From an uncultured Gammaproteobacteria bacterium (lineage in GTDB: Bacteria; Patescibacteriota; Patescibacteriia; Magasanikbacterales; UBA922), in NCBI GenBank assembly GCA_964612105.1, contig CAZTEU010000005.1, positions 45,039-109,038 on the forward strand: a stretch of 64,000 nucleotides of DNA, given 5' to 3'. Below are positions 8,209 through 29,161 of the stretch, one piece after another (the stretch's first letter is position 1; each line of letters begins with the position of its first letter). The position numbers were made by a program, and so were the translations under genes. Under the pieces are notes generated by a model that did no database searches, was not told the origin of the DNA, and saw only the letters and a list, made by a program, of their open reading frames with translations.

Positions 8209-8559
8209 ATGGATAAATACACAGTATGGCATAATCCCAGATGTGGAAATAGCCGAGGAACAATAGAACTGTTAAAAGAAAGAGGTATAGAGCCAGATAT
8301 AAAACTATATTTGGAGAACGTCCCAAGTGAAGATGAGCTAAAAAATGTTGCTAGACTTCTTAATAAAAAACCTATTGAGTTTACTAGAACAAAAGAGAAA
8401 GCGTTTAAAGAAGCAAATCTGAGAAAAGATAGTAGTGATGAAGAAATAATTAAGGCAATGAAAAAATATCCAATACTTATACAAAGACCAATTGTAATAA
8501 AAGACAATAAAACAGCAGTAATAAGTAGACCGCCAGAAACCGTGCTAGATTTCATATAA
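8209..8559 (+). CDS. ArsC/Spx-family protein (arsenate reductase-like, thioredoxin fold)
   Basis: MDKYTVWHNPRCGNSRGT... N-terminal Cys in ArsC/YffB-like context. Confidence 0.75.
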   Translation: MDKYTVWHNPRCGNSRGTIELLKERGIEPDIKLYLENVPSEDELKNVARLLNKKPIEFTRTKEKAFKEANLRKDSSDEEIIKAMKKYPILIQRPIVIKDNKTAVISRPPETVLDFI

Positions 8560-8590: not shown

Positions 8591-8679
8591 TAGACAAAAA
8601 GGTATGGGAGCGAACGAATCTTGTTTCTACGCCCCCTCAACCCCGCCCCAGATGGGACTAGTGTGGGACGGCGAGGCTA

Positions 8680-8916
8680 CTAACCCCTACTCGTGGTGTT
8701 GCTGTTCCAGACGAGGTCGAAGACCAGCGCCAGGAATAGGCTCATCGTGCAGATGCAGAACAGCACGATGCCGGTGTCGAACATCATGTGCTCGAAACCG
8801 TTCAGCCTGATACCATTGCAGCTGATGGCTGCACTTCGGTACATCGCGGATGCACCACCCACGATGAACAGAACTATGCAACCGATGAAGCAAGAACCAA
8901 ACAGCTTCCAGAACAT
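8680..8916 (-). CDS. small membrane protein (78 aa), island A gene 1
   Basis: Two hydrophobic helices; AAGGAGGGGAAA immediately upstream of ATG (rc of 8917-8932). Confidence 0.6.
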   Translation of the reverse strand: MFWKLFGSCFIGCIVLFIVGGASAMYRSAAISCNGIRLNGFEHMMFDTGIVLFCICTMSLFLALVFDLVWNSNTTSRG

Positions 8917-8990
8917 TTTCCCCTCCTTGAGGAATAGGTAACCTTACGGTCACCAGCGATAAGTACGTTCGCTCAACCTTTCTATCTAGT

Positions 8991-9040
8991 ATAGATTGTA
9001 AAGAGTTTTTGTTTTACCAAACAAAGAAGTGACGGGAGTG
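8991..9040 (+). repeat. intergenic repeat copy 1 (TTGTAAAGAGTTTTTGTTTT ... AAGAAGTGACGGGAGTGAA)
   Basis: Near-identical 20-mer plus related purine-rich 19-mer also at 9576-9628; third inverted partial copy at 9955-9975. Confidence 0.7.
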
Positions 9041-9084
9041 AATTGGATTCAGACTCGCCACCTCGCAGGCTCCTTCTCCTGCGA

Positions 9085-9498
9085 TCAGCGACGGCCCGTG
9101 TGTTGCTCGTCTGCGATCGTCGCCACCCCGGCGAACAGGATAGCGACACTGATGAGCCCAAGGATGGCCCACACCGTCGCCTCTGGATTCAGCACCATCT
9201 GGGCGCTGAATATTCCGCCGTACATGACGGCGGTGAAAACCATCCCAGCGAAGCTCGCCAACCAGACGAACATCCCCGTAACCAGGATTACCATCCCATC
9301 CCAGCGGGAGAAGGTCGACAGGTTGCAGATGCAACCCAAACCAGCCGCCACGAAGATGAAGGCGCCGATCAACAGCGCCAATGTCGCGAACTCGAGGAGG
9401 AACGGCAGGGTGAACACCCAGCCGAACACCTTCATGGCCACGCCCATGATGGTCGCGACTAGAGCCAAACTGACCGTCGGGATATCAAAGAAACGCAT
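9085..9498 (-). CDS. polytopic small membrane protein (137 aa), island A gene 2
   Basis: Four hydrophobic segments; CAAGGAGGAGAAAATG upstream. Confidence 0.6.
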   Translation of the reverse strand: MRFFDIPTVSLALVATIMGVAMKVFGWVFTLPFLLEFATLALLIGAFIFVAAGLGCICNLSTFSRWDGMVILVTGMFVWLASFAGMVFTAVMYGGIFSAQMVLNPEATVWAILGLISVAILFAGVATIADEQHTGRR

Positions 9499-9575
9499 TT
9501 TCTCCTCCTTGCTCGTCTACTGACGAGCTGTAGGCGTTTCGTCCAAAATTCACTCCACTTCTTTATTTGGTATAA

Positions 9576-9628
9576 GTTGTAAAGAGTTTTTGTTTTTCTA
9601 CTAAACAAGAAAGCGAGGAGGTGAACAT
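9576..9628 (+). repeat. intergenic repeat copy 2 (TTGTAAAGAGTTTTTGTTTTT ... AGAAAGCGAGGAGGTGAA)
   Basis: See copy 1. Confidence 0.7.
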
Positions 9629-9683
9629 AGTACGTTACAACCCCTCGCTGGAAACTGCTCCACAGGAAAAGGGTTGAAAGATC

Positions 9684-9920
9684 TCACTCGACGTCGTTGC
9701 ACACCGAGCGCACGGGCTCCTCATCGCTGTACCAGCCGAGGGGGGCTGCATAAACGACGAGGCCACCGATGCTCCCGAGGGAGGCCAGGGACAGACCCAG
9801 AATGGCCGTCTCCACCCGCCCCGCATCAGGGACGAGGAACAGGCCGGTGGCGAAGAGCCCCAGACCCACGAGGAGGAGGATGAAGAAACAGTGGGAATCA
9901 CGATCACGGCGACTACGCAT
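9684..9920 (-). CDS. small membrane protein (78 aa), island A gene 3
   Basis: Two hydrophobic helices; GGAG 8 nt upstream of ATG; TG-extended -10 promoter at 10027-10040. Confidence 0.5.
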   Translation of the reverse strand: MRSRRDRDSHCFFILLLVGLGLFATGLFLVPDAGRVETAILGLSLASLGSIGGLVVYAAPLGWYSDEEPVRSVCNDVE

Positions 9921-9954
9921 GGCAAACTCCAGCCTAGGTTACTTGAACGACGAT

Positions 9955-9975
9955 GTGTCGGACTTGTTCACCTCG
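9955..9975 (-). repeat. inverted partial repeat copy 3 (rc: AAGAAAGCGAGGTGAACA)
   Basis: Reverse complement matches purine-rich half of copy 2; lies about 40 nt upstream of island A gene 3. Confidence 0.6.
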
Positions 9976-10026
9976 CTTTCTTACTTAGTATATTTTAAGG
10001 TACTACTATCCTATTTTACCAACACA

Positions 10027-11590: not shown

Positions 11591-14134
11591 ATGGACCCAA
11601 AACAACTTCTAGATCATTTCTCCTCTCACCTAAAAAATGTAATAGCAAAAGCAATTTCTGTATCTGCAAGCTTTTCTCATTCAGAAGTAATGCCTGCACA
11701 TTTACTTCTCGCACTAGTACAAGAAAAAGGATCTATTGCTTCTCAGTTACTGGAAAAGTCAGAAGTTTCTTCCAAGACTATTCTTTCTTACCTAAAATCT
11801 ATAACAAAACAACTTCCTGCAATGGACATAGCAACACGAGCGGCAATAGCCACTCTTCCAGAACTCAGTAAATCTTCTAAAAGAGTTTTGGAAAAAGCAA
11901 TGCTTACTGGTTATGAAAATGAACATACCCATGTTGGTACAGAACACTTGCTGTACGGATTATTACAAAGTAGAGATGTTGGAATAAAAGAGATACTATC
12001 CAAAACAAAAATTAAGAGAAAAGAGATGACACAGCAGTTGGAAATTATTTTTACAAGTACAAACAAATTTCCAGATGTGCAGGATATAGCAGAAGCAATG
12101 GGACATATAGAAGAATTGGCAGAAGGAGGTGGTGCGCTTGCAATTACTCCTGAAAAATCAAAAACTCAAAAGAAATCTAGAACACAAAAATACCAAGCAT
12201 TGTCTATGTTTGCTGTAGAATTGACAGATGTAGATGTGCAAAAAACAATTGATCCTGTAATTGGTCGTGAAAACGAAATAGAAAGACTAATCCATGTGCT
12301 TTCTCGCAGGAATAAAAATAACCCTATACTTGTTGGAGAGCCCGGGGTTGGTAAAACAGCAATTGTAGAGGGGCTTGCAAAAAGGGTTTCGGAAGGAAAG
12401 GTGCCGGCTGTATTACAGAACAAAAAAATATTTGCATTGGACTTAACATTACTTGTTGCAGGTACAATATATCGTGGGGAATTTGAGGCTCGTATTAAAC
12501 AGCTTGTAGATGAGGTGTCCAGTAGAAGTGATTTTATTCTTTTTATAGATGAAATCCACAATATAATAGGAACAGGTTCCAATCAAGGAACAATGGATGC
12601 AGCAAACATATTAAAGCCTGCACTTGCGCGTGGAAAACTTAGGTGTATTGGAGCTACAACTCATGATGAGTATAAGAAGTACGTTACAGCAGATCCTGCT
12701 CTGGAAAGACGTTTCCAGGCTGTTAATGTAGAAGAGCCTTCTCGCGAAGAGGCAATAGAAATATTAAAAGGTGTAAAAAAATATTACGATGAATTTCATG
12801 GTGCTTCTATCAGCGATTCAGCAATTACTACAGCAGTAGACTTATCCATGAGATATATTCATGATAATTACTTGCCAGATAAGGCAATTGACTTAATAGA
12901 CGAAGCATCTGCTTCTGTACGCACAAAGAAAAAACCAACTCCCCTACAAAAAAAGAGGTTGGGCATTATAAAAGAGTTAAACAGTATAAGAAAAGACAAA
13001 GATACAGCTATGGCAAGTGAAGACTTAGATTCAGCGACTGTTTTAAAGAAACGACTAGATGATTTAGAAGAAAAAATAGAATCTCTAGAAAAACAGACAA
13101 AGAAAACAAAGAAGGTGGCGAGATCACGTGTTACTAAGAGTGATGTAATAGAAGTACTAGCAAACAGATTGGGGCTAAATAAGAAACTATTGGAAGAAAA
13201 CCAATGGTCCAAATTACAAACTCTTTCGGATAGGCTTTCAAATCATATTGTAGGGCAGGACACTGTACTCAACAAACTAGAGAGAGTATTAAAACAAGCT
13301 CATCTAGGTATAAGAGATAAAAACAAACCGTTGTCGTCTTTGCTTTTTGTTGGTCCTAGTGGTGTAGGAAAAACAGAACTCGCAAAATCTTTGGCGAAGG
13401 AGCTATATCACGATGAAAAATCTCTTATTAGGTTGGACATGAGTGAGTTTGCAGAAGGGCATGGTGTATCTAAACTACTTGGCTCCCCTGCTGGATATGT
13501 GGGATACAAAGACAGAAACCACTTTATCGATAAGCTAAAACAAAGACCTTACTCAGTCGTATTGTTCGATGAGTTTGACAAAGCCCATCCGGATGTTATG
13601 AAATTATTATTACAGATTTTAGATGAAGGCACTTTGACAGATAGTAATGGTAAAAAAGTCCACTTCTGCCACTCAACTGTTATCCTTACAAGCAATGTTG
13701 GGGCGGAACTATATAAGAAGAGTGGTTTTGGTTTTGGTTCTTCCAAGCAAAAAAGTGTGGAAGGTACAAAAAAACGAGATGAAGCAATAAGCTCAAAATT
13801 AAGAGATGTGTTTGGAACTCCCCTTCTAGGAAGACTTCATGAGGTGTGTATCTTTTCTCCTTTGACTAATGAAAATATAATGGAAATAATTTCTAGACAC
13901 GCAATAAAAATTAGCTCAGACCTAAAAACACAGCAGGATATCGCCCTTACTCTTACAAAGACTGCTATTAAACAGCTTGCGATAGACTCTAAACATGATG
14001 ATCTTGGAGCAAGGAATGTTGAACGTATAGTAGATCATGTTATACAGGATTTAGTTGTAGGTGAATTACAAAAAGAAAGTAAGAAGAAACAATATAGACT
14101 ATCCCATAAACAATCTGCATACTATTTACAATAA
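11591..14134 (+). CDS. clpC: Clp/Hsp100 AAA+ chaperone, ClpC-like ATP-binding subunit
   Basis: Clp_N repeats, two Walker A motifs GEPGVGKTA and GPSGVGKTELAK, 847 aa. Confidence 0.9.
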   Translation: MDPKQLLDHFSSHLKNVIAKAISVSASFSHSEVMPAHLLLALVQEKGSIASQLLEKSEVSSKTILSYLKSITKQLPAMDIATRAAIATLPELSKSSKRVLEKAMLTGYENEHTHVGTEHLLYGLLQSRDVGIKEILSKTKIKRKEMTQQLEIIFTSTNKFPDVQDIAEAMGHIEELAEGGGALAITPEKSKTQKKSRTQKYQALSMFAVELTDVDVQKTIDPVIGRENEIERLIHVLSRRNKNNPILVGEPGVGKTAIVEGLAKRVSEGKVPAVLQNKKIFALDLTLLVAGTIYRGEFEARIKQLVDEVSSRSDFILFIDEIHNIIGTGSNQGTMDAANILKPALARGKLRCIGATTHDEYKKYVTADPALERRFQAVNVEEPSREEAIEILKGVKKYYDEFHGASISDSAITTAVDLSMRYIHDNYLPDKAIDLIDEASASVRTKKKPTPLQKKRLGIIKELNSIRKDKDTAMASEDLDSATVLKKRLDDLEEKIESLEKQTKKTKKVARSRVTKSDVIEVLANRLGLNKKLLEENQWSKLQTLSDRLSNHIVGQDTVLNKLERVLKQAHLGIRDKNKPLSSLLFVGPSGVGKTELAKSLAKELYHDEKSLIRLDMSEFAEGHGVSKLLGSPAGYVGYKDRNHFIDKLKQRPYSVVLFDEFDKAHPDVMKLLLQILDEGTLTDSNGKKVHFCHSTVILTSNVGAELYKKSGFGFGSSKQKSVEGTKKRDEAISSKLRDVFGTPLLGRLHEVCIFSPLTNENIMEIISRHAIKISSDLKTQQDIALTLTKTAIKQLAIDSKHDDLGARNVERIVDHVIQDLVVGELQKESKKKQYRLSHKQSAYYLQ

Positions 14135-14135
14135 T

Positions 14136-14495
14136 ATGGAGGATCAACAAAAACAGTGGGCAACAGAACTACAAAAAGCGATAAACAAAACAAAAAAGGA
14201 TTCTGGAGATACCGAAGGAAACACAAGAGTCATTAATAAAAAAATCGCAGAGAAAAAAGAGGAGATTATTAAGGTAGCAGAGAAAAAGGATATAGACGGA
14301 GCAAAGAAGCTCTTTTTTGAGTTAATACAACTTCGTGCAACACATACTGCGCTTGGAATAAAAAAGATGAAAGAAAATGGAAAACTAACAAAAGACCTTG
14401 CAGAAAAGGTTGCAGAATATTTTATTACAGACTGTATTAATCTAGCAATTGCGGTTGATTCAATACTAGGAATAAATTATGGTACTGACTCCTAA
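14136..14495 (+). CDS. hypothetical coiled-coil protein (about 120 aa; start taken at MEDQQKQ after clpC stop)
   Basis: In-frame continuation of ORF 14061..14495 but clpC stop at 14132-14134 makes 14136 the plausible start. Confidence 0.4.
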   Translation: MEDQQKQWATELQKAINKTKKDSGDTEGNTRVINKKIAEKKEEIIKVAEKKDIDGAKKLFFELIQLRATHTALGIKKMKENGKLTKDLAEKVAEYFITDCINLAIAVDSILGINYGTDS

Positions 14496-16206
14496 TATAA
14501 TAGCATCCAAGGGTTTGCTGTCATCCTTACTAAAAGGAAAGGTTGGTACTTTAGTTTTAACAAAGGCATTTGTTGCAGCCGGTCTTGGAGACATGGCTCC
14601 AATAGTTGCGCAGTTGATATCTCGAGATGGTGTATTAGATACATTACTCCCTGGTGTTCTGGCACAGGCTGATTCATACAGACAAAATGCGCAGGATTTT
14701 GTAAGAAATAAGTTTGCTTCTGTTGTAGAACCACCTGCTGGTGCATATGACCCAGGGCTTGCATATGCTGGAGGTCCACAAGAATTTGCTGTCGGTGATA
14801 GCTTCCTTAATGACGCAAAAAAACTTGCTAAGGAAAGCTCTGACTCTGTTAACAAGAATAAGCCAGTAGAATCTTCACCTGAAGTACAAAAAGATGATAT
14901 AATAGCTCCAGAAGCACAACCGCCGGTTGGTGGTGGTCTTGGTGGCGGAAAAACAACCCCTCAGGATGCACAAGAACAACAAGATAATGGTGTAGCGCCA
15001 GACAAATCACAGCAAGTTGGTTCACCAGATAAACAACCTCAAGAAGATGAGGAACAGGCACAGGAACCTGCTTCTAAGGAAAAGCCAGAGCCTAAACAAA
15101 AAGCTAGTGAAGGGCAAGCAAAAGGTGAAGATGCTCCCCAAATACCTATTAGTGTTACTCTGGATAAGCCTGAAGATAGTAGAACTATAAAACTAGATGA
15201 TGAAAGTGAGGGTGGAGCAGGGGGAGAACAGGCAGACGAGGTAGATCCAACAGAATCTCAACCTTCTGTATTAGATGATAAAGAACCCTCAGAAGAACCG
15301 GCTACAGAATCTCCTGAAGAGGGCGGTAAAGAAGGTGAGGAAATCCCCAAAACTAAAACACCAGAGGATAGAGAGAAAAAAGAAGAAGATGAAAAGGAGA
15401 AGGAAGATGATGAGGATAAAGAAGAAAGTGATAGTGATGAAGACGATGAGGATGAAGAAGGTACAGAAGAGGAAGATGATGGATTAGGTTTTGATAAACC
15501 AACAGATTTTAGCGCTCCCGCAGAAGACGATTCCTCTGGAGCAGAAGAGGAACAGAAAGACGATGATAAGAAAGATCCGGGGAAAGAAGCACAAACAGCA
15601 CAACAATTGAGTAAGGATAAGAATCTAGACGCAAAAGAGAAACGTGATAAGAAAGGAAAAGAATCCACTAAAGGTAAAGAAAAAAGACCGGATGCAGAAA
15701 GACATGGGTCATCTAGTAGCGTGATGGTTGTGCTATGGATGCTACACGATATAGTTGCTTTTGTTAACATGATTTTAATGTTAATTCCAGCACTAAATAT
15801 TTTGACCGGCTGGCTAGTCACACTGATGTTCCTTGGTCCAATACTATTTATGCCATTTGTAGACGGTGATATATTCTGGTTTACAGTTGCATATATAATA
15901 GGAAAAAGAACTCCTAGAGGGCCTGAGGATGAGAAGCAGAATGTTGTAGACAGATTCACAAAAGAAAAGAAAGAGCAGGTTGTAGACTTAGCAGAACAAG
16001 AAGGAAAGAGATTAGCAAAGGAGGCTATAAAGTCGTTGGGCTGGTATGCGCTAATAATACCTGGAATAATTATATTATTCCCTGTCGACTTAGTAATATA
16101 CTGGATAATCGTGATTAGATTTACAGCAGCAAAAAGGCCTACAGCTAAGAAATCAAAAGAGGTTGCATTCAGCATTCTAGAACAAGCAAAAATAGCAAAA
16201 AAATAA
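14479..16206 (+). CDS. hypothetical envelope protein with D/E/K-rich low-complexity centre and C-terminal TM helices
   Basis: 575 aa; about 200-aa acidic low-complexity tract (EEDEKEKEDDEDKEESDSDEDDEDEEG), three hydrophobic helices near C-terminus. Confidence 0.6.
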   Translation: MVLTPNIIASKGLLSSLLKGKVGTLVLTKAFVAAGLGDMAPIVAQLISRDGVLDTLLPGVLAQADSYRQNAQDFVRNKFASVVEPPAGAYDPGLAYAGGPQEFAVGDSFLNDAKKLAKESSDSVNKNKPVESSPEVQKDDIIAPEAQPPVGGGLGGGKTTPQDAQEQQDNGVAPDKSQQVGSPDKQPQEDEEQAQEPASKEKPEPKQKASEGQAKGEDAPQIPISVTLDKPEDSRTIKLDDESEGGAGGEQADEVDPTESQPSVLDDKEPSEEPATESPEEGGKEGEEIPKTKTPEDREKKEEDEKEKEDDEDKEESDSDEDDEDEEGTEEEDDGLGFDKPTDFSAPAEDDSSGAEEEQKDDDKKDPGKEAQTAQQLSKDKNLDAKEKRDKKGKESTKGKEKRPDAERHGSSSSVMVVLWMLHDIVAFVNMILMLIPALNILTGWLVTLMFLGPILFMPFVDGDIFWFTVAYIIGKRTPRGPEDEKQNVVDRFTKEKKEQVVDLAEQEGKRLAKEAIKSLGWYALIIPGIIILFPVDLVIYWIIVIRFTAAKRPTAKKSKEVAFSILEQAKIAKK

Positions 16207-16215
16207 ATAAAAAAT

Positions 16216-17451
16216 ATGGATAAAAAAAGAATCTTGTTTATCGTAGCATTCGTTATAGCAACAATAGTGATAGGCTTTGCTATGTATCGAGTGTTCTTTT
16301 ATACTCCAAAACCTGCAGAACGACCTGGAACTATTGCAACAGAACCATCCAAGTTCCCATCATCTGGAGAGGCAGGAGAAATAGACAGACCAACAATCCC
16401 ACCATCAGAAGTGTTACCTCCATCTGTCACAGCACCAAGTCAACCAGGAGTAGGTGATGGAATAGGAGTTGGAGAAGATGTACAAAAAATAGTGCAATCT
16501 GTTATAAACACACCTGTTGTTGGTATGGATATAAGTAATCAGAGTGGGCAGGCTAGATTCTATAACCAAGAAGACGGGAAGTTTTATTCTGTAGACGCAC
16601 TCGGACAACCAAGGGAACTAACAGACCAGGTTTTCTTTAACGTAGAAAATGTAACATGGTCCCCTACTCAAAGTGAGTCGATTATAGAATACCCAGACGG
16701 TGCAAATATTTATTATAATTTCAATACAAAAAAACAAGTTACATTACCAAAACACTGGGATTCTTTCTCATTTACAGATACAGGAGATAAAATAGCAGCA
16801 AAGAGTCTAGGGTTCTCTGAAGAAAACAGGTGGCTCATTAGTTCAGACCCAACAGGAAGTAATATAAACCTAATAGAGCCTCTTGGTAGTAACGCAGATA
16901 AAGTAATTGTAGACTGGTCTCCAAATAAACAGATTGTTGGGTTATCAGCTACTGGTGAAGAGCTTGGTTCTGATAGACAAGAGATATTATTTGTTGGACA
17001 GAATGGTGAGAATTTTAAATCAACAATAGTAGAAGGTAGAGATCTGAGGACAGAATGGTCAAAGACAGGTTCTAAACTATTGTACAGCGTTCATAATTCA
17101 CGAAATGATTTCAAGCCAGAGCTTTGGGTTGTAAAAGGTAGTGGAGAAAACTTGGGGGGAGGAAGAAAGCTACTTAATGTGGATACATGGGCAGATAAGT
17201 GTTCATTCTCAGATGATAGGTATGCCTATTGTGGAGTACCGCAAATACTAGAAAAAGGTTCTGGTTTTGCACCAGCCCTTGCGGACTCAACACCAGACGA
17301 CTTGTACAAGATAGATGTGGAGACAGGACTAAAGGTGCAAATACCTCTAGATGATTTCCATGTAATCGATACTATTTCATTAAGTCCGGACGGGAAGACA
17401 TTGTATTTTACAGACAAAAACATTCCAGGACTATATAAAGTACAGTTATAA
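16216..17451 (+). CDS. TolB-like beta-propeller (PD40/WD40-like) protein with N-terminal TM anchor
   Basis: N-terminal TM, Pro-rich linker, repeated ...W..SP.G..I.. propeller-like repeats, C-terminal LSPDGKTLYFTD. Confidence 0.6.
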   Translation: MDKKRILFIVAFVIATIVIGFAMYRVFFYTPKPAERPGTIATEPSKFPSSGEAGEIDRPTIPPSEVLPPSVTAPSQPGVGDGIGVGEDVQKIVQSVINTPVVGMDISNQSGQARFYNQEDGKFYSVDALGQPRELTDQVFFNVENVTWSPTQSESIIEYPDGANIYYNFNTKKQVTLPKHWDSFSFTDTGDKIAAKSLGFSEENRWLISSDPTGSNINLIEPLGSNADKVIVDWSPNKQIVGLSATGEELGSDRQEILFVGQNGENFKSTIVEGRDLRTEWSKTGSKLLYSVHNSRNDFKPELWVVKGSGENLGGGRKLLNVDTWADKCSFSDDRYAYCGVPQILEKGSGFAPALADSTPDDLYKIDVETGLKVQIPLDDFHVIDTISLSPDGKTLYFTDKNIPGLYKVQL

Positions 17452-17453
17452 AT

Positions 17454-18092
17454 ATGCCTAGTCACAAGCAATTATTAACTTTATTTGTACCAGCCCTTGC
17501 TGTTGTTGCTATTGGTTTAATAATTGCGATTATACAGTACGACCCTCTCTACCCAAAAGAGAACAATAATAAATCAGAGGCTTCTGATCTAATACCTATT
17601 TTTACAGAAGATCCAATTGTCGGATACAAGAAAGCTCCTATTACAATTATTGCGTTTGAAGACTTTGGTTGTGAAGGATGCAAAGCTCAATCAGATATTT
17701 TCGATCAAATAATGCTCAAACACCCAAAAAAAATAAAGGTTGTTTGGAAATCACTTACAGTAACAAGATTCCCAATTTCTACACAACGAGCTCATGAGTA
17801 TGGATTATGTGCAAACGAACAAGGTAAGTTTAGCGAATTCAAAGAACTTGCTTTTGTTAACGGGCTTAACCTGTCCCAAGGAATATTAGATTTAATAGTA
17901 GAAGAAACAGAAATGAGTGAACGCAAACTAACATCCTGCCTAAACTCAGCAAAACCTACAAAATATCTGTCACAAAACGAATCTCTAGCTAACCTGCTAA
18001 ACGTACAGGCAGTACCTACAATATTTATAGACAATGTACAGATTAATACACCTTCTAGTATAGAAGAATGGGAAATGGTCCTAGGATTATAA
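17454..18092 (+). CDS. DsbA-like thioredoxin-fold thiol:disulfide oxidoreductase
   Basis: N-terminal TM, CEGC (CxxC) motif. Confidence 0.75.
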   Translation: MPSHKQLLTLFVPALAVVAIGLIIAIIQYDPLYPKENNNKSEASDLIPIFTEDPIVGYKKAPITIIAFEDFGCEGCKAQSDIFDQIMLKHPKKIKVVWKSLTVTRFPISTQRAHEYGLCANEQGKFSEFKELAFVNGLNLSQGILDLIVEETEMSERKLTSCLNSAKPTKYLSQNESLANLLNVQAVPTIFIDNVQINTPSSIEEWEMVLGL

Positions 18093-18094
18093 TT

Positions 18095-19834
18095 ATGAAA
18101 TCAATACTCCCTAAAAAAATATTATTCTCACTGGGAATTTTTTTATTTGTTTTTGGAGTAATGAGTTATCCCCCACAAGCTAAGTCTGCAAAGTTAGACT
18201 TTGGAGCTGTTTGTACAGGAGATTCTCAATGCGATTCTGGAGAATGCGAAAACAGCACAAAAAAAGATGCGAAAGGACAGACAATAGCCTACTGTGTGTG
18301 TGAGGAAGAAGTTGTAGGAGAAGATGGTTTAGATTGTGCAAAGAAATATGGTGGAACATCTTCTGACTGGACTTGTGAAGATGGTGGAGATGCAAGTTGG
18401 AATATAAACTATTGTGTTAGTACAAAAGATGATAATGATAAGAGGTATGCTGTTCCAGTAAAGATACTAGGTGCTCTAAGTGGAGTTTCAGATGCAATCA
18501 TAAAATCCGGTACTGGAGTAACGAAAGACGAAATAGACACCTTAGTTACAACACCTCAACCTAGGATAAAAATCCCTGGATTAAACTTTACTAAAGTGGA
18601 AAACCTGCGAGATTTAGCTACCAAAGAACAAACTCCAGACGGTCGAGAAGAGTTATATATAAACATACCATTTTTTGGGGAATACATAGCTACTATATAT
18701 AGATTTGCAGTAATACTTGCTAGTATTTGGGCCATTGTATACATGATGGACGCTGGACTACTACTAATAATTGCTGGAGGTAATGCAGAAAAAATTCAAC
18801 AGGCAAAACATAAAATAGTACGGGGTTTCTCTGGATTGTTCATTATATTAGGATCATATGTGCTGTTATACACATTAAATCCAGAGTTGGTGACGTTTAA
18901 GAATCTAAGGATATTGTATGTAGAGACAGAGCCATATCCAGAGATAACACATGAAACTGCTCATCAGGGTCCAGGTGGAACTTTGCTTCCTGCGAATGGA
19001 TTAGTAGCAAAAAAAGTAACCTCATTTGGTGAGCTTACAGAACAAGATTTTACAAAAGATAAAATGAACGCAATAATGACTGACGGATGGAAAGTTTGGC
19101 AATCTTTTACACAAACAGAAAAACAGGAGGTTTTACCACATTTATTTAAGTATATTGGCGAATGCCCACAATCTTCTAGCTTAATTAACATGGGTATTAA
19201 TCATGCCAACTGGTCCAAGAAAAAAATCCACAAGGATGCACTTCCGGCAGCCCAGCTACTTGCAAAAATTGCAGATAGAGAAGGGTTCAGGATATATATA
19301 TCCTCTACTTATCGCACAACTTTGAGACAAACACAGATATGGAATACAGGAATAGTGGCGAGGTATAAGCAAAAAAGATCAGGATGGAAAAGAAATGAGG
19401 GTAAAATCGGACGCCCTTCGTGTGGTTCACCACATAACTCCGGAGCTGCAATGGATGTAAATCTGAAAATACCAGTAAAGAAAGGCGGTAAAATAACATA
19501 TAAGTGCGTGGCTTGTCAGAACGATAAAAAGTACTTTATAACAGCAAAGACCGACTCAGCGGCCATAAAACAATATGAACAACAGTATCTAGGTGGAAGC
19601 GATGGTGGACTATATAGATTAATACTGGAAGAGATGTTCAAAGAGGCTGGTTGGGTAAGATACTGTGATGAGTATTGGCATTTTGAGACTGCAGTTACAA
19701 CACGTTACAACAAGTGGGATAAAGCTCCAGAGACACGTTGTGTAAGACACTATAAAAATTGGAAGCCTGAAATAGAAGACAATATAAAGAAAAAAGCAAA
19801 CTCTCTTACAAAAACTGGCACATTGTTTAAATAA
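18095..19834 (+). CDS. secreted Cys-rich / pilin-like TM / peptidase M15 (VanY/LAS-type D,D-carboxypeptidase) fusion protein
   Basis: Signal peptide from MKSILPKK; 18-Cys N-domain; two-helix hydrophobic hairpin resembling TrbC/VirB2 pilins; C-terminal SPHNSGAAMDV (H-x6-D) and EYWHFE Zn-ligand motifs of M15 peptidases. Confidence 0.6.
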   Translation: MKSILPKKILFSLGIFLFVFGVMSYPPQAKSAKLDFGAVCTGDSQCDSGECENSTKKDAKGQTIAYCVCEEEVVGEDGLDCAKKYGGTSSDWTCEDGGDASWNINYCVSTKDDNDKRYAVPVKILGALSGVSDAIIKSGTGVTKDEIDTLVTTPQPRIKIPGLNFTKVENLRDLATKEQTPDGREELYINIPFFGEYIATIYRFAVILASIWAIVYMMDAGLLLIIAGGNAEKIQQAKHKIVRGFSGLFIILGSYVLLYTLNPELVTFKNLRILYVETEPYPEITHETAHQGPGGTLLPANGLVAKKVTSFGELTEQDFTKDKMNAIMTDGWKVWQSFTQTEKQEVLPHLFKYIGECPQSSSLINMGINHANWSKKKIHKDALPAAQLLAKIADREGFRIYISSTYRTTLRQTQIWNTGIVARYKQKRSGWKRNEGKIGRPSCGSPHNSGAAMDVNLKIPVKKGGKITYKCVACQNDKKYFITAKTDSAAIKQYEQQYLGGSDGGLYRLILEEMFKEAGWVRYCDEYWHFETAVTTRYNKWDKAPETRCVRHYKNWKPEIEDNIKKKANSLTKTGTLFK

Positions 19835-19889
19835 CGGATACATGTAATAATATAGGAACCTGTCGTGAGACAGGTTTTAATATACAAAT

Positions 19890-21224
19890 ATGACAAAAGA
19901 AACAATAATCTTCGTGTGCTCTAACTGCGACGCTCAATTCCAGAAATGGACTGGACAATGCTTCGAATGTGGTAAATGGGGTACAGTAGAAAACAAGACA
20001 GCAATCACAGATAACAAATCTGGAGACAGTAAAGTTATTGGTGTAGGTGTAAACACACAAAAGCTAGGTGAAATAAAAAATGTAGATTCTTTTAGGAACT
20101 CCTCAAAAATTGGAGAACTAGATCGTGTTCTTGGTGGTGGAATAGTACCAGGTAGTTTAATACTTCTTGGAGGAGAGCCTGGTATTGGAAAATCCACTCT
20201 TTCTTTGCAAATTGCAAACAATATGAAAAAGTCACTATACATTTCTGGAGAAGAATCAATAAATCAGATTAAGATGAGAGCAGACAGACTTGGTAATGCA
20301 AATGCAGATATGTTAGTTATGCATGAGAATGATATAGAAAATATATGCGCAACAATAAAAAAAGAGTCTCCGGAGATTGTAATAATAGACTCAATACAAA
20401 CAATGATATCCAATGACACAAGTGGAGAGCCTGGAAATGTAAATCAGGTGCGTGTGTGTGCAACAAAGCTTTTGGATTCTGCTAAGCAAAGTAAGAGTGC
20501 TATAGTTATTATTGGTCATGTTACAAAAGATGGTTCTGTTGCTGGACCAAAGACTCTGGAACATCTAGTAGATACTGTTTTGTACATTGAGGGAGATAGG
20601 TACTACCAAACAAGACTTTTGAGAACAATAAAAAATAGGTTTGGCTCTACAGATGAAGTAGGTGTCTTTGAAATGAACGAACTCGGTCTTAAGGAAGTAA
20701 AAAACCCATCATCTGCTTTCTTAGAAGAGCGTGCAGATGATACGCCTGGCAGTGTTGTTACTTGTCTTATAGAAGGCACTCGCCCACTACTAATTGAGGT
20801 GCAGGCATTAGTAAATAAAACTAGTTTTGGATATCCTGTACGCAAAGCAAGCGGTTTCGATCTAAATAGATTACATGTACTTGTAGCTGTACTACAAAAA
20901 AGAGCAGGACTGCAGTTAGGTCAGTATGATATCCATGTAAATGTAGTTGGAGGATTAAAAGCACAAGAGCCGGCTGCAGACTTAGCAGTATGTCTTGCTA
21001 TAGCAAGCTCTTTTAAGGACAAGGTACTTGGTGGAGATTTGGTAGTTTTTGGAGAAGTTGGATTAGGTGGAGAAGTAAGAAGAGTAAATCAGTCTCAAAA
21101 AAGAATAAAAGAGTGTGAGAAACTTGGTATGCAACGAGTAGTAACTTCCAAAAACCCAGGTAATGTTCATGGAACAAAGATTATAGAAGTAAAGAATATA
21201 GCAGAACTAATCCAGAAAACATAA
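19890..21224 (+). CDS. radA: DNA repair protein RadA (Sms)
   Basis: N-terminal C4 zinc finger (CSNCDAQFQKWTGQCFECGKWG), RecA-like Walker A GEPGIGKST, KNRFG motif, Lon-like C-terminus. Confidence 0.95.
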   Translation: MTKETIIFVCSNCDAQFQKWTGQCFECGKWGTVENKTAITDNKSGDSKVIGVGVNTQKLGEIKNVDSFRNSSKIGELDRVLGGGIVPGSLILLGGEPGIGKSTLSLQIANNMKKSLYISGEESINQIKMRADRLGNANADMLVMHENDIENICATIKKESPEIVIIDSIQTMISNDTSGEPGNVNQVRVCATKLLDSAKQSKSAIVIIGHVTKDGSVAGPKTLEHLVDTVLYIEGDRYYQTRLLRTIKNRFGSTDEVGVFEMNELGLKEVKNPSSAFLEERADDTPGSVVTCLIEGTRPLLIEVQALVNKTSFGYPVRKASGFDLNRLHVLVAVLQKRAGLQLGQYDIHVNVVGGLKAQEPAADLAVCLAIASSFKDKVLGGDLVVFGEVGLGGEVRRVNQSQKRIKECEKLGMQRVVTSKNPGNVHGTKIIEVKNIAELIQKT

Positions 21225-21636: not shown

Positions 21637-21665
21637 TCCCTTTTGTCAAGGGATACTTTTTATTC
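21637..21665. terminator. terminator hairpin ATCCCTTTTGTCAAGGGAT + T-run
   Basis: Shares CCCTTTTGTCAAGGG core with 10043-10070. Confidence 0.7.
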
Positions 21666-23726
21666 CAAATGTACTGTCTTTTCCCACTCTTTTAACTTCT
21701 CCTTAATACTTGGTACCTTATCAAAATCTATATCCCTAGCTAATTCCCTAGCTGTCTTAATCAGCTCAACATCCTGCATAGTAGCAAACTGCAATTGCAT
21801 TAATCCACTTTGAGATGTCCCATATACTTCTCCCGGTCCTCGCATAGCAAGATCATATTCTGCAACATCAAAACCGTCTGTGTTTTTCTCAAAAAAACCA
21901 AGCCTGTCTTTTACAAAATCAGAATCACTGTCTGTAAATAAAAGACAAAATGATTGATGAGAACTTCTTCCAACCCTACCACGAAACTGATGAAGTTGTG
22001 CAAGACCAAACCTGTCCGCCCCCTCAATCATCATAACAGACGCATTTGGAATATCTACACCAACCTCAACAACAGACGTAGACACAAGAATATCTGTCTT
22101 CCCATTCGCAAAATCTTTCATTACCCTGTCCTTTTCCTCTGTCTTCATCTTTCCATGCAAATAATCCATGCTTAGTTTTGGAAAAATATCTCTGTTTAGC
22201 TTCTCATATTCTTGCATTACAGATTTCTTCTCAGCACCTTTTGTTGCGTCTATCATTGGACATATTACAAAAATCTGTCTACCTTTTTTTACCTGCTGTT
22301 CTATAAAATCATATGCCATTCCCCTATTCTTTGGTTCCACTAAACGAGTTTTAATAGGTTTTCTTCCTTGTGGCATTTCCTTAATTACAGATAAATCTAA
22401 ATCTCCATAAAGAGTAAGAGCAAAAGAACGAGGAATAGGTGTAGCTGTCATACTAAGAAAGTGCGGTTGAGTGTCCGGATCCCCTGACTTTTCCCTAAGT
22501 TTCTTCCTCTGTTTAACACCAAACCTGTGTTGTTCGTCTACAATTACCAATCCAAGATTGTGAAATACAACATCGTCAGAAAGTATAGCGTGGGTTCCTA
22601 CAAGCACATCTATATTCCCCTCCTCTATATTCCTATACAACTCTCTTTTCCTTCCTGCTTTTGTTTTTTCTTTTAATTCTATACCAATAGTCTCCAACTG
22701 AGAACGTGTAACAAGCGCAATAGCAATTTCTTTCCCTAAAACTTTCTGTAATGATTCAAAATGTTGTTTTGCAAGTATTTCCGTAGGTGCCATCATTATT
22801 GTCTGGAAATTACTCAAAACAGAATTATACATAACCAAACCAGCAACAACCGTCTTTCCAGAGCCTACATCCCCCTCCAAAAGCCTGTTCATTGGATTAG
22901 CCCTCCCTAAATCTTGCAATATATCCCATGCAGATACCTTTTGTGCATTAGTAAGATTAAAAGGAAGTCTTGCAACAAACTCTTTCACCTCCTTTTCCCT
23001 AAACTCAATTTGTGGAGCACTGTGTCTTTTTAATGACTGACGTAACATTTCTGCACGAAGCTGAAGAATAAAAAGTTCATCAAATTTGAGTCTTTTTTGC
23101 GCATGAGTTAGCTCATCCTTATCATCTGGAAAATGAATAGAGCGCACAGCTTCTGCATATGGCATTATATCCACCTCTTCTCTTATATCATCTGGAATCC
23201 AATCCTCCAAACTATCTGCTAGATGTACAACCTGACTCATTAAAAAACGTAATTGTTTCTGTGTAATACCGGCAGTAAGAGAATACATAGGGACAATTCT
23301 TCCTGTATGTACAGTTTCACTTTTCATTTTCTCATAACTGGGGCTTTTCATAACAGTACCAAACATATCTGTACTAACTTTTCCAGAGAAATAAACCATA
23401 TCACCGGATTTTATATTCTTAGAAATATATGGTTGCCCCCACCACACAATTCTCAATTGTTCCTCATCATCACTAACAACAGCTTCTGTTATTATTTTTC
23501 TCTTCTTATAACTTCTTTTACTATTAATTAATTCTACCCTTGCCAACACAGTTACCTGCTCTCCTTCAACAAGATTAGATATAGGGACAGTCTGACTAAA
23601 GTCTTCATAACGAAATGGAAAGTAAAACAACAAATCCCCTGCTGTCTCTATTCCAAGGCGTGACAGGCGGGTAGACAATGCTTTCCCTACTGTCTTAAGT
23701 GCAGATATTGGGGTTTGTTTATTCAT
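21660..23726 (-). CDS. recG: ATP-dependent DNA helicase RecG
   Basis: 688 aa; wedge domain, DEQHRFGV (DExH), helicase motifs. Confidence 0.95.
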   Translation of the reverse strand: MNKQTPISALKTVGKALSTRLSRLGIETAGDLLFYFPFRYEDFSQTVPISNLVEGEQVTVLARVELINSKRSYKKRKIITEAVVSDDEEQLRIVWWGQPYISKNIKSGDMVYFSGKVSTDMFGTVMKSPSYEKMKSETVHTGRIVPMYSLTAGITQKQLRFLMSQVVHLADSLEDWIPDDIREEVDIMPYAEAVRSIHFPDDKDELTHAQKRLKFDELFILQLRAEMLRQSLKRHSAPQIEFREKEVKEFVARLPFNLTNAQKVSAWDILQDLGRANPMNRLLEGDVGSGKTVVAGLVMYNSVLSNFQTIMMAPTEILAKQHFESLQKVLGKEIAIALVTRSQLETIGIELKEKTKAGRKRELYRNIEEGNIDVLVGTHAILSDDVVFHNLGLVIVDEQHRFGVKQRKKLREKSGDPDTQPHFLSMTATPIPRSFALTLYGDLDLSVIKEMPQGRKPIKTRLVEPKNRGMAYDFIEQQVKKGRQIFVICPMIDATKGAEKKSVMQEYEKLNRDIFPKLSMDYLHGKMKTEEKDRVMKDFANGKTDILVSTSVVEVGVDIPNASVMMIEGADRFGLAQLHQFRGRVGRSSHQSFCLLFTDSDSDFVKDRLGFFEKNTDGFDVAEYDLAMRGPGEVYGTSQSGLMQLQFATMQDVELIKTARELARDIDFDKVPSIKEKLKEWEKTVHLE

Positions 23727-24899: not shown

Positions 24900-26333
24900 A
24901 TGCGACACGAGTACCATAATTTTGCCACTGAGAGGGAAAAACCATCACGCCCTAAATACTGGGGCTATTTCTTATTGTTTTTGGTATTCCTGTTCTTTAT
25001 GACAGGCTGTCTAAGATTTTTGTTTGGGTCTAGATTAATCTCAGAAGACCCTATGGCATATGATCCGGTAACTCTAGATCCAAAGCCACCTGAGGGACTT
25101 ATTAAAAGAATTGGTCATTTTGTTCTGAGTCGGGATGTCACCCTGTCCGGACAAAGAAAAGATCGTATTAATATATTGCTACTAGGTATGGGTGGAGAAG
25201 GTCATGATGGACCCTATCTTACAGATACAATAATTGTTGGGAGTGTAAAACCGTCTACGGGACAAGTCGCTCTTGTTTCTATCCCACGCGATCTTGGAGT
25301 AAAGATTCCGGGGAGAGGTGTAAGGAAAATTAATCATGCCAATGCGTATGGTGAAGCAAAAAAAACAGATTGGGGGGCAGCATTTGCTACAGAAGTAATA
25401 GAAGATACTTTTGATGTGGATATAAACTATTATATACGTTTAGATTTTAGTGCGTTTAAGCAAATTATTGATGAGGTTGGAGGTATTACGGTTAATGTAG
25501 AGAGAAGTTTTGCAGATCACACTTACCCAGCAGATAATAATGATTTCCAAACTGTTAGTTTTACAAAAGGTATTACAAAAATGGATGGAGACATGGCACT
25601 AAAGTATGCGCGCTCTCGTCACGGAAATAATGGAGAAGGTTCAGATTTTGCAAGAGCTCGTCGTCAACAAAAAATGCTATTAGCATTAAAGAAAAAAATA
25701 TTATCTTTTTCTACATTATCTAATCCTGTTCGTTTACACAACATCGTAAAAACACTAGATAAGCACATAACAACAAACATGGAGTTTTCAGATATAATAG
25801 CGTTTGTTAGGTTGGCAAGAGAAGCAGACACTGGTACCATGAAAACAGTGGTGCTGGACAGTTCTGTTAATGGTTTTTTACAAAATGGATATAGTCCAGA
25901 CGGAGCGTTTATCCTAGAATCCAAGACAGGATCATTTAAGGAGATAAGGAAGATGATAGATAATATATTCGAAGAAGATGTAGAGCTCGGAGTTGAGGGT
26001 GCCCCAACACCTATTCCTGTACAAGAAGAACCAGAGATTGCACAAGTAAACCTAGAGATACAAAATGGTACATGGAGAGCAGGACTTGCTGCAAGAATGA
26101 GAAAGAGGTTGCAGGATAAAGGATTTAAAGTAAGTAATATTGGAAACACAGAAGAAAGACCTCAATTTGCAAGTGGAATATATGACATTGTTGGCAATGA
26201 CGACTCTCACGAATTAGTGACAGCATTACAGGATGAATTACACATTCCTGTAAAACAAAAAGTTCCAGATGGATTAAGTGCAACAAGCACAACAGAAATT
26301 CTAATTATATTAGGGGAAGATATACAAGAGTGA
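24900..26333 (+). CDS. LCP family protein (LytR-CpsA-Psr) cell-envelope phosphotransferase
   Basis: N-terminal TM, INILLLGMGGEGHDGPYLTDTIIVGS...IPRDL LCP core, C-terminal LytR_C-like region. Confidence 0.85.
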   Translation: MRHEYHNFATEREKPSRPKYWGYFLLFLVFLFFMTGCLRFLFGSRLISEDPMAYDPVTLDPKPPEGLIKRIGHFVLSRDVTLSGQRKDRINILLLGMGGEGHDGPYLTDTIIVGSVKPSTGQVALVSIPRDLGVKIPGRGVRKINHANAYGEAKKTDWGAAFATEVIEDTFDVDINYYIRLDFSAFKQIIDEVGGITVNVERSFADHTYPADNNDFQTVSFTKGITKMDGDMALKYARSRHGNNGEGSDFARARRQQKMLLALKKKILSFSTLSNPVRLHNIVKTLDKHITTNMEFSDIIAFVRLAREADTGTMKTVVLDSSVNGFLQNGYSPDGAFILESKTGSFKEIRKMIDNIFEEDVELGVEGAPTPIPVQEEPEIAQVNLEIQNGTWRAGLAARMRKRLQDKGFKVSNIGNTEERPQFASGIYDIVGNDDSHELVTALQDELHIPVKQKVPDGLSATSTTEILIILGEDIQE

Positions 26334-28282: not shown

Positions 28283-29161
28283 ATGACAATATCAAAGGAG
28301 GGGCTCGTTGCTTTTTATAGCAAAATAACTTATGGGCGATACTGTCAGATACAAAAAAACTTCTCCTCTTTTGAGGAGTTTTGGGGTGCTAGTCCTGACG
28401 AATTATTCTTGCGTCTTAGGTGGAAAGAAGATTTGATTTCTCACTTCTGCTCTTGGCGAAAAGATTTAGAGTACAATAAAATAGAAGAGTTAATGCAAGA
28501 ACAAGAAATGTATCTGGTTTTAATGGATGATAAGGACTATCCCCCACTACTAAAAGAGATACATAGCCCACCTATTGCACTTTTTGTTCGTGGAACATTG
28601 GAAAACATAAGAAAACCATTAGCTGTTGTTGGTACAAGGAAATGTTCTACGTACGGAAAACAGATTACAAGGACACTTGTGAGTGAACTAGCAAAAGAAG
28701 GAATCAGTATTATTAGCGGTCTAGCATATGGGATAGACGCAAGTGCTCATTATGCAACCCTACAAGCAAGTGGTAATACAATTGCTGTTCTGGGATCTGG
28801 ATGTGATGAAAACACAATAACCCCAGCCCCACATAGAAAACTAGCACAACAGATAGTAGAATCTGGAGGGGCTGTTATATCTGAGTACCCACCAGGTACT
28901 CATCCTACTAAATATTCTTTTCCAGAGAGAAACAGAATTATATCTGGAATTAGTATAGGGACACTTGTTATTGAGGCTCCTGAAAAATCTGGAGCATTAA
29001 TTACTTCTGATTTTGCACTTAACCAAAACCGAGAGGTCTTTGCTGTACCTCATAATATAACAAATATAAACGGGGCTGGTACAAATGAATTAATTAAAAA
29101 AGGTTCTCACGTTGTAACAAACTCAAGAGATATATTACATGTTTTTGAATCTAATCCATGA
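28283..29161 (+). CDS. dprA: DNA processing protein DprA (Smf)
   Basis: Rossmann-like LAVVGTRKCSTYG...SGLAYGIDASAH. Confidence 0.9.
   Translation: MTISKEGLVAFYSKITYGRYCQIQKNFSSFEEFWGASPDELFLRLRWKEDLISHFCSWRKDLEYNKIEELMQEQEMYLVLMDDKDYPPLLKEIHSPPIALFVRGTLENIRKPLAVVGTRKCSTYGKQITRTLVSELAKEGISIISGLAYGIDASAHYATLQASGNTIAVLGSGCDENTITPAPHRKLAQQIVESGGAVISEYPPGTHPTKYSFPERNRIISGISIGTLVIEAPEKSGALITSDFALNQNREVFAVPHNITNINGAGTNELIKKGSHVVTNSRDILHVFESNP

Follow-up and report, generated by a model that had tools for sequence, protein, structure and literature searches.

Between clpC and radA in the 64-kb stretch of DNA analysed here (the window; contig CAZTEU010000005.1) lies a string of five plus-strand open reading frames (ORFs), o1 to o5, the last of which joins a pilin-type membrane hairpin to a zinc peptidase domain of the VanY/M15 family. 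The source organism is a tiny, probably symbiotic, Magasanikbacteria-like bacterium that belongs to the candidate phyla radiation (CPR), and the Magasanikbacteria are assigned to the patescibacterial class ABY1 (Table S1 of PMC12102498). The cluster is best read as a patescibacterial type IV secretion system (T4SS) pilin locus in an enzyme-carrying form, with a DsbA-like oxidoreductase and a beta-propeller, separate from the ATPase genes, and it is probably the outward-facing part of a machine pushed through cell walls. The reading that we favour, to which we give somewhat better than an even chance, is that it constitutes the extracytoplasmic half of an ABY1-type T4SS locus, in which wall hydrolases anchored by a pilin module, together with a dedicated DsbA, serve T4SS-linked opening of the wall. 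The original prediction for this DNA had proposed a surface-structure or wall-remodelling module and a candidate host-attachment or piliation apparatus; the identity of the C-terminal peptidase and the design of a carrier with exchangeable enzymes are new beyond it.

The argument starts from o5 (18095..19834), a modular secreted or membrane protein of 579 amino acids (aa), or 588 aa if an alternative ATG at 18068 is used. Its earlier description as a large Cys-rich secreted fusion protein is borne out by a multi-domain structure with 14 Cys in total. A signal peptide, aa 1-32 (MKSILPKKILFSLGIFLFVFGVMSYPPQAKSA; 18095..18190), is read from the sequence and modelled by AlphaFold2 (AF2) as a helix at aa 5-24; it is followed by a small disulfide-rich beta domain (aa 33-124; 18191..18466) with 8 Cys at positions 40-107 and a predicted local distance difference test (pLDDT) score of ~90-95. 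After a linker comes the conserved module that we call the carrier (aa 145-280; 18527..18934), built around a hairpin of the PF18895 type, and, beyond a disordered linker, the VanY/M15 domain of LAS fold (19082..19831). The AF2 model has an overall pLDDT of 76.6. Within the carrier, a PQPRIxIPGLxF motif is succeeded by a beta-hairpin, a pair of long hydrophobic helices with a turn between them (aa 193-226 and 231-261, nucleotides (nt) 18671-18877, helix pLDDT >92) and an NPELVxFKNL motif; past the AGGN turn the sequence is basic (AEKIQQAKHKIVRG).

VanY-family enzymes have SxHxxGxAxD and ExxH as their zinc-binding and catalytic motifs. Both are present in o5, as SPHNSGAAMD (aa 445-454, nt 19427-19456) and EYWH (aa 526-529, nt 19670-19681). 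The Pfam VanY profile (PF02557) matches aa 376-456 at 34.6 bits against a cut-off of 25 (E 2e-8), and a fold search retrieves VanY_B and VanX. By profile, motifs and LAS fold, o5 belongs to the M15/VanY family, and the intact motifs and modelled VanY_B-like fold make the peptidase look active. The suggestion of cell-wall remodelling is thus right for o5.

That o5 represents a widespread design, rather than a single fusion, is seen from its relatives. With o5 aa 116-292 as the query, phmmer against 1.84 billion representatives returned 8076 clusters at E<=1e-3, of which 1560 reached E<=1e-10, a family that a word-indexed homologue search misses (one match for the core, five for full-length o5). 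PF18895, the Pfam T4SS_pilin family, is matched by 65 of the 88 closest homologue clusters (best E 5.9e-22) and by half of the syntenic paralogues (20/40). Most of the 88 bear a wall-hydrolase domain, the domains recorded being Amidase_2 (15 clusters), VanY, M15_4 and M15 (14, 6 and 4), SLT (11), SGNH (8), Peptidase_C39_2 (7), NlpC/P60 (2) and M23, CHAP and Glucosaminidase (1 each); the syntenic paralogues show the same spread. A few relatives carry domains that are not wall enzymes, namely Exo_endo_phos (EEP, a nuclease/phosphatase domain), N-terminal in L006:12052-14490, and Metallophos in P0180 (L038:585-3413). Cargo occurs on both sides of the hairpin, as SGNH-hairpin-SLT (L004, L005) and EEP-hairpin (L006), with hairpin-VanY, hairpin-M23, hairpin-C39_2 and hairpin-glucosaminidase at other loci.

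In 139 homologues, aa 145-278 form a highly conserved stretch without gaps, and conservation collapses within a few residues on either side. The N-terminal domain of o5, upstream of aa 141 where conservation is lost, therefore occupies what is a variable cargo position in relatives. More than 100 aa follow the core in 144 of the 148 closest homologues, and more than 100 aa precede it in 78. Varied enzyme domains at either end of a conserved module identify that module as a carrier with exchangeable cargo, and enzymes on both sides fit a hairpin whose two ends lie on the same, outer side of the membrane. A search of PMC12102498 and of other literature turned up no account of pilin modules fused to enzymes. 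As a separate observation, three or four PF18895-type hairpins stand in tandem in single polypeptides in P0150, P0166, P0183, P0186, P0238 and P0254, P0150 (L034:7788-10463) being the final gene of a PrgI-TraC-like-VirB4-pilin-pilin-pilin locus beside rnpA/yidC/dnaA/dnaN.

An N-proximal carrier that is conserved, next to cargo that varies greatly and has sharp limits, would also suit polymorphic anti-host effectors, in which the module would deliver or display enzymes that attack the peptidoglycan or nucleic acids of a host and not the wall of the producer. One to two paralogues per locus, with enzyme classes that differ in close relatives, and thousands of divergent clusters agree with such a role, as do the hypervariable pilin arrays of Patescibacteria (PMC12102498) and the requirement for them in epibiotic growth of Southlakia (PMC10633639). 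However, no immunity-like genes were noted adjacent, exit of the proteins from the producer's membrane is without support, and cutting of the cell's own wall in the manner of VirB1 accounts for the enzymes more simply. We regard anti-host effectors as unlikely.

The design is embedded in a conserved gene order. When one genome per species was scanned with a profile of o3, 30 loci emerged, to which lookups of o5 homologues added more; the clpC-to-radA interval is complete in 20 (18 species-representative genomes and 2 contigs). All 20 share the order o1 (present in 11), o2-position gene, o3, DsbA gene (present in 19) and pilin-module genes, of which there is one in 13 loci and two in the other 7, with pgm upstream and recG downstream of the whole. 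With ClpC identities of 43-57% across these loci, the arrangement is not due to chance. Median intergenic gaps in relatives are 2-28 nt through to radA, and 8.5 nt from clpC to the following gene (24 loci), so that the arrangement looks like an operon. In the window itself the five genes are consecutive and nearly gapless where the original prediction had placed them, o1 beginning 1 nt past the clpC stop and the junctions clpC/o1/o2/o3/o4/o5 measuring +1, -17, +9, +2 and +2 nt; conservation of their order, which it had named as a check, holds in every related locus that spans the interval. Mean identity to the window proteins in the complete loci is 48% for ClpC, 50% for o3, 37% for DsbA and 61% for RadA, and relatives average 36% to o5 over the best local segment.

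A rival reading is a housekeeping autolysin module, with the hairpin as a mere anchor, own-wall remodelling in growth or division, independent of any secretion system, as the function, DsbA as a general oxidase and the propeller as a regulator of the hydrolase. The cluster does sit within a housekeeping string (pgm, clpC, radA, recG, lytR, der, pth) that has no secretion ATPase, the cargo set (amidase, M15, SLT, NlpC/P60, M23, glucosaminidase) is that of ordinary autolysins, and o3 is conserved like a core gene. Yet the anchor is no generic transmembrane (TM) segment: it is a sharply bounded module of ~135 aa, homologous to pilins of VirB4 operons, and in 18 contigs T4SS operons enclose o3 and pilin-module genes. 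At this locus, moreover, even close relatives differ in cargo type and copy number, which would be unusual for a core division function, and some cargos (EEP, Metallophos) are not wall enzymes at all. An autolysin module is, on this evidence, a rather improbable account of the locus.

The T4SS operons just mentioned provide the link to secretion. A metagenome scan with sister-clade o3 orthologues yielded 72 distinct loci, and 18 sister-clade contigs show the order PrgI - TraC-like - VirB4 - anchored protein (~185 aa) - protein with a polar intrinsically disordered region plus TM segment (~200 aa) - pilin - o3 - [pilin] - radA - recG, the last on the opposite strand. The VirB4 matches P-loop_TraG at 1e-28, and the o3 orthologue gives a full-length alignment at 41% identity. 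Among the pilins of these operons PF18895 is found in 34 of 35; VanY, 3D, Amidase_2 or M23 domains occur in 7 of the 35, the only setting in which linkage of hydrolase and T4SS is seen, and most of the remainder have long Cys-rich tails. A profile of the o5 core also matches the pilins of bona fide T4SS loci, at 1e-25 to 1e-27 in L030 and 1e-12 to 1e-47 in L034, the latter laid out as PrgI - TraC-like - VirB4 - 97 aa - three pilins beside rnpA/yidC/dnaA. One locus, L091, joins the clpC-type and the T4SS-type arrangements: clpC - 368 aa - o3 is followed on the minus strand by recG, one 168-aa gene, comF, a gene in the VirB8 position, VirB4, the TraC-like gene and PrgI.

Some details of the sister-clade loci are recorded here for their own sake. 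Their VirB4 is split in all loci (L043-L093, e.g. L050:5170-7744) into a ~220-aa TraC-like ORF and a ~630-aa P-loop ORF, and L062 and L063 have a 1322-aa version. Two large genes upstream of PrgI (~880 and ~590 aa) gave no Pfam match. In a few nearly identical loci (L030:8261-8883, L040, L042) two 108-aa ORFs lie between the last pilin and o3; one of them appears nucleotidyltransferase-like, and the pair may be read, by sequence alone, as HEPN/NT toxin-antitoxin-like.

Several results weigh against assigning the window's own cluster to a T4SS. By Pfam, no VirB4, PrgI, VirD4, PilB or PilT was found among all large ORFs of the 64 kb, nor within 10 kb of the cluster in Magasanik-type loci, and the window holds only one PF18895-type core. 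The neighbourhood is otherwise housekeeping, with wall genes of its own (LytR, 24900-26333; a Mur ligase; the S11 peptidase DacA). The sequence of o5 scores 18.3 bits against PF18895 (E 0.0025), under the gathering cut-off of 26.6 bits; its core profile finds no pilin, and indeed no match at E<=10, among PDB sequences; fold searches return only generic helical hairpins for this part and no solved pilin; and no member of canonical TrbC/VirB2 (PF04956) appears among the families reported for o5 relatives. Homology between o2 and the sister-clade operon gene of like build and position is undetectable (hhalign probability 10.8%), so that their equivalence is positional and architectural only. In a third clade, described below, o3 is found without T4SS genes. 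Finally, we know of no PF18895 protein for which a pilus has been demonstrated experimentally.

These points set the strength of the claims. Because o5 homologues at 40-49% core identity do match PF18895, membership holds at the level of the family and is sub-threshold for the o5 sequence alone. Consistent with it, o5 shows a Sec signal peptide followed by two hydrophobic helices with a short basic loop, as in PF18895 pilins, although at 579 aa it is not a small hairpin-only protein. The comparison of this hairpin with pilins that had been proposed earlier thus succeeds for the Pfam T4SS_pilin family and fails for TrbC/VirB2 and solved pilins; o5 is not demonstrably a canonical TrbC/VirB2 pilin. 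With no secretion ATPase near the cluster, what ties this lineage to a T4SS is homology together with the synteny of other clades; two Magasanikbacteria assemblies are VirB4-positive (Table S1 of PMC12102498). The idea of a piliation apparatus accordingly keeps the PrgI-VirB4-...-pilin-o3-pilin-radA synteny of sister clades in its favour and has the missing VirB4/VirD4/PilB/PilT in the window against it, while host attachment finds no direct support. Our estimates for the favoured reading and for its alternatives partly overlap.

The third clade comprises 16-17 loci (e.g. L086, L087, L096-L098, L105, L106, L112, L115) in which a complete type IV pilus operon (PilM ... PilB, PilC, pseudopilins) is the divergent neighbour of o3, and comF comes after o3. 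It follows that o3 is not exclusively a T4SS gene, nor can it be named a T4SS subunit outright. Beyond comF stand a 593-601-aa gene (by eye ThrRS) and the genes for a thioredoxin-like protein with a TM anchor (CPHC) and for a membrane protein with CPVC. What stays constant around o3 across clades is radA or comF on the downstream side and a pilus system of some kind upstream, radA lying at most three genes downstream in 36 of the 72 metagenome loci and comF downstream in 17. ABY1 T4SS loci commonly include comF, recG and radA (PMC12102498).

Neighbours of this kind keep a competence or DNA-uptake reading alive, in which a T4SS without relaxase and/or a type IV pilus would import DNA, and o3 and the pilin-module enzymes, co-transcribed with the recombination helicase RadA, would open the wall or handle the DNA. 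The constancy of radA or comF, the divergent type IV pilus operon (16 loci), the EEP domain on one pilin module and the presence of dprA, recG and recO in the window speak for it, as do the comF/recG/radA association and absence of relaxase in the literature (PMC12102498) and the proposal of T4SS-mediated uptake as a possibility (PMC11665869). So, too, does the tiny gap to radA: in relatives the distance from the last pilin gene to radA has a median of 9 nt, which makes read-through into radA likely, whereas in the window the gap is 55 nt and contains an 8-bp stem-loop, AACCTGTC-GTGA-GACAGGTT followed by TTTAATAT (19857..19876), which may be a weak terminator or attenuator and as such counts against uptake. 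A scan for promoters and terminators was uninformative, promoter-like sites being fewer than in shuffled sequence. But the association is one of adjacency only, and o3-radA-recG may simply preserve the order of an ancestor; Pfam and NCBIfam show no DNA-binding domain for any of the five proteins; and in Southlakia competence (comEC) is dispensable where the T4SS is essential (PMC12857230). DNA uptake strikes us as distinctly unlikely to be what the cluster is for. Independently of this, we note that recombination and transformation genes fall in one 30-kb stretch: radA (19890-21224), recG (21660-23726, minus strand), dprA (28283-29161), topA (31286-33568) and recO (48820-49554, minus strand).

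The product of o3 (16216..17451, 411 aa) is a membrane-tethered seven-bladed beta-propeller. A TM helix (aa 3-28) and a disordered Pro/Ser-rich linker (aa 38-89) precede the propeller (aa 93-411), which is modelled with ~28 strands at a pLDDT of 86, and whose closest structural matches in a fold search are seven-bladed WD40 or S9-peptidase propellers. It carries an invariant Cys329/Cys339 pair. NCBIfam gave no match to o3, nor did a profile of its family against PDB sequences; in Pfam, PD40 reached 16.3 bits, under its cut-off of 20.9. At 50% identity against 48% for ClpC, the propeller is as constrained as a core chaperone, and we thus have a strongly conserved propeller for which no database has a name. 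TolB is a six-bladed PD40 propeller with an N-terminal TolA-binding domain, encoded in the Tol-Pal operon of a diderm. Of the original description as a membrane-anchored TolB-like beta-propeller, the N-terminal anchor and the propeller stand, and identity with TolB is rejected on the sub-threshold PD40 score, the seven blades, the missing N-domain and the missing Tol-Pal context, no tol/pal genes being present in the 64 kb.

The next gene, o4 (17454..18092, 212 aa), encodes a membrane-anchored DsbA-like thiol:disulfide oxidoreductase, in agreement with its first annotation. It matches the Pfam families Thioredoxin_4 (61.4 bits, E 1.6e-16, above cut-off) and DSBA (31.8 bits against a cut-off of 25.6, E 1.5e-7), has the CEGC active-site motif at aa 73-76 (nt 17670-17681) and bears an N-terminal hydrophobic anchor, LLTLFVPALAVVAIGLIIAII; thioredoxin-fold profile, CxxC and anchor together are those of a DsbA-like protein. 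In 19 of the 20 complete intervals the DsbA gene adjoins o3, sitting between two Cys-bearing exported proteins.

Upstream of these, o2 (14479..16206) encodes 575 aa, with an acidic low-complexity tract at aa 130-405 (nt 14866-15693; 92 D/E against 39 K/R) and hydrophobic membrane helices C-terminal to it at about aa 405-560, just as had been reported. A gene is invariably found in this position between clpC/o1 and o3; its products range from 156 to 765 aa, every one ending in a C-terminal TM hairpin, and split into several mutually unalignable subfamilies. The o2 gene is thus a fast-evolving positional analogue across loci. The first gene, o1 (14136..14495, 119 aa), encodes a helical-looking small protein with no signal peptide, and its weakly conserved alignment shows the motifs L..LRA.Q and DC. 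Neither protein matched NCBIfam; in Pfam, o1 had no match above threshold and o2 none. A role for o1 as a ClpC adaptor was considered from adjacency alone and dropped because o1 is missing from 9 of the 20 loci.

Taken together, these proteins suggest the following picture for the favoured T4SS-linked reading. In this Magasanikbacteria-like lineage, the genes for the outer half of the T4SS would occupy the clpC-radA interval, separately from those for the VirB4 ATPase. The Sec pathway would insert o5, its signal peptide would be removed, and the two long helices would form a membrane hairpin with the basic loop in the cytoplasm; with the loop so placed, both the disulfide-rich N-domain and the VanY/M15 domain would face outward. 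The neighbouring membrane-anchored DsbA may serve as oxidant for o5, with its 14 Cys, and for the invariant Cys pair in o3. The peptidase would trim or cleave peptidoglycan stem peptides, of the cell itself or of a host, locally where a secretion or pilus structure crosses the wall, and would thereby do the VirB1-type job of other monoderm T4SSs, tethered through a pilin-type module. As the most conserved member, o3 is probably a scaffold or a receptor or dock for the pilin-module proteins; o2 would be a rapidly evolving membrane protein, and o1 dispensable.

A bolder version would have the PF18895 hairpin truly polymerise, the enzyme-bearing forms being minor or tip subunits of a conjugative-type pilus that shows peptidoglycan hydrolases, and now and then nucleases or phosphatases, on its surface and digests the host wall, with o3 as its base or dock and DNA or nutrients fed toward RadA/ComF. 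Pilin termini are on the outside of the F pilus, with the inter-helix loop turned toward the lumen (PMC5018250), so that the geometry permits a protein with terminal cargo to be built in as a minor or tip subunit. We hold such an enzyme-armed pilus to be a doubtful proposition. If true, it would be a VirB2-world counterpart of the modular type IV pilins and a CPR mechanism for breaching host envelopes.

The window as a whole is AT-rich (~36-40% GC) and consists mostly of housekeeping genes, among them pheST, rseP, pgm, clpC, radA, recG, lytR, der and pth, as well as dprA, a Mur ligase gene, topA, relA/spoT, parAB, dacA, scpAB, aspS, asnS and recO. The AAA+ chaperone gene clpC (11591..14134, plus strand; Pfam Clp_N, AAA, AAA_2, ClpB_D2-small) heads the co-directional gene string and belongs to the context, without a functional part in the module; radA (19890..21224, plus strand; Zn_ribbon_LapB, AAA_25, ChlI, Lon_C) is likewise a context gene, its constant downstream neighbour. 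Further envelope genes encode a CAP-domain (cysteine-rich secretory) protein (45739-46749), a protein with repeated CarboxypepD_reg (49941-51458, minus strand) and an AftA-like membrane glycosyltransferase (41224-42930, minus strand). A GC-rich island at 8600-10000, with 200-nt windows of 0.58-0.66 GC against a background of ~0.36, lies downstream of an ArsC/Spx-like gene (8209-8559) and holds small hydrophobic minus-strand ORFs (9085-9498, 9684-9920, 8680-8916); it has no Rfam match at E<=0.1, and may be acquired DNA or an unrecognised RNA. At 33987-35000 on the minus strand, a 337-aa ORF with two tandem ~140-aa repeats (ELQQLIGAC...DDQPDYEYSLEVLH...ASLRDLLVYCAEH...) and a GC content of 0.456, above its surroundings, matches nothing in Pfam, NCBIfam or Rfam.

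Epibiotic growth requires the patescibacterial T4SS in the one species tested, and the role of this system has been described as completely unknown (PMC11665869); its VirB2-like pilins set it apart from other monoderm systems (PMC12857230). These pilins, of family PF18895, occur in hypervariable arrays across Patescibacteria, and most genomes that have them possess no VirB1 homologue (PMC12102498). The present results indicate that the pilin module is a routine carrier of exchangeable wall-degrading enzymes in a large groundwater lineage. Such enzyme-carrying modules offer an explanation for the missing recognisable VirB1, and the locus gives concrete candidates for passing a secretion or pilus structure through the cell's own wall or that of a host. 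Its physical tie to radA/comF bears on whether the system imports DNA.

Of the systems already known, the VanY/M15 (LAS) D,D- or L,D-peptidases share profile, motifs and fold (VanY_B, VanX) with o5, whose enzyme is, unlike VanY, the C-terminal domain of a large hairpin-anchored protein and has no vancomycin-resistance context. The VirB1-like hydrolases (PrgK of pCF10, TraG of pIP501, CwlT; PMC12102498) are membrane-associated and often two-domain (SLT plus CHAP/NlpC-P60), are encoded with the T4SS and open the wall locally. Relatives of o5 likewise bear SLT, NlpC/P60, CHAP, amidase and M23 domains, but the anchor of o5 is a pilin-family hairpin, its own enzyme is of the M15/VanY class, the class of cargo is exchangeable, and virB4 is not adjacent. 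With the PF18895 pilin arrays of patescibacterial T4SSs (PMC10633639, PMC12102498) the o5 family has in common the hairpin family, a Sec signal, multiple paralogues, high divergence, the ABY1 association with radA/recG/comF and homologues beside PrgI/VirB4. It departs from them in that the hairpin of o5 is internal to a protein of 579 aa, flanked by an enzyme on one side and by a disulfide-rich domain on the other, and in that the locus lacks VirB4/PrgI and has a dedicated DsbA and a conserved propeller.

For that propeller, TolB offers a likeness, being likewise an extracytoplasmic beta-propeller whose gene accompanies those for the envelope or a pilus, and the C-terminal propeller of PilY1 of type IV pili, a propeller able to dock on pilins (PMC8179133), offers another as analogy only. 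Closest in design are the modular type IV pilins, such as PilB/PilC of Streptococcus sanguinis, in which a small pilin carrier is linker-fused to a bulky effector module and for which many architectures, CPR examples included, have been described (PMC8179133). The two are unrelated, since the modular type IV pilins have a class III signal peptide, a single alpha-1N helix and a PilB/PilC machine, whereas o5 has a two-helix hairpin of the VirB2 type; the cargo of the former is mostly adhesion or lectin modules, that of the o5 family mostly peptidoglycan hydrolases at either terminus. The modular-pilin principle, until now reported for type IV pili alone, thereby gains a VirB2-type example in the o5 family.

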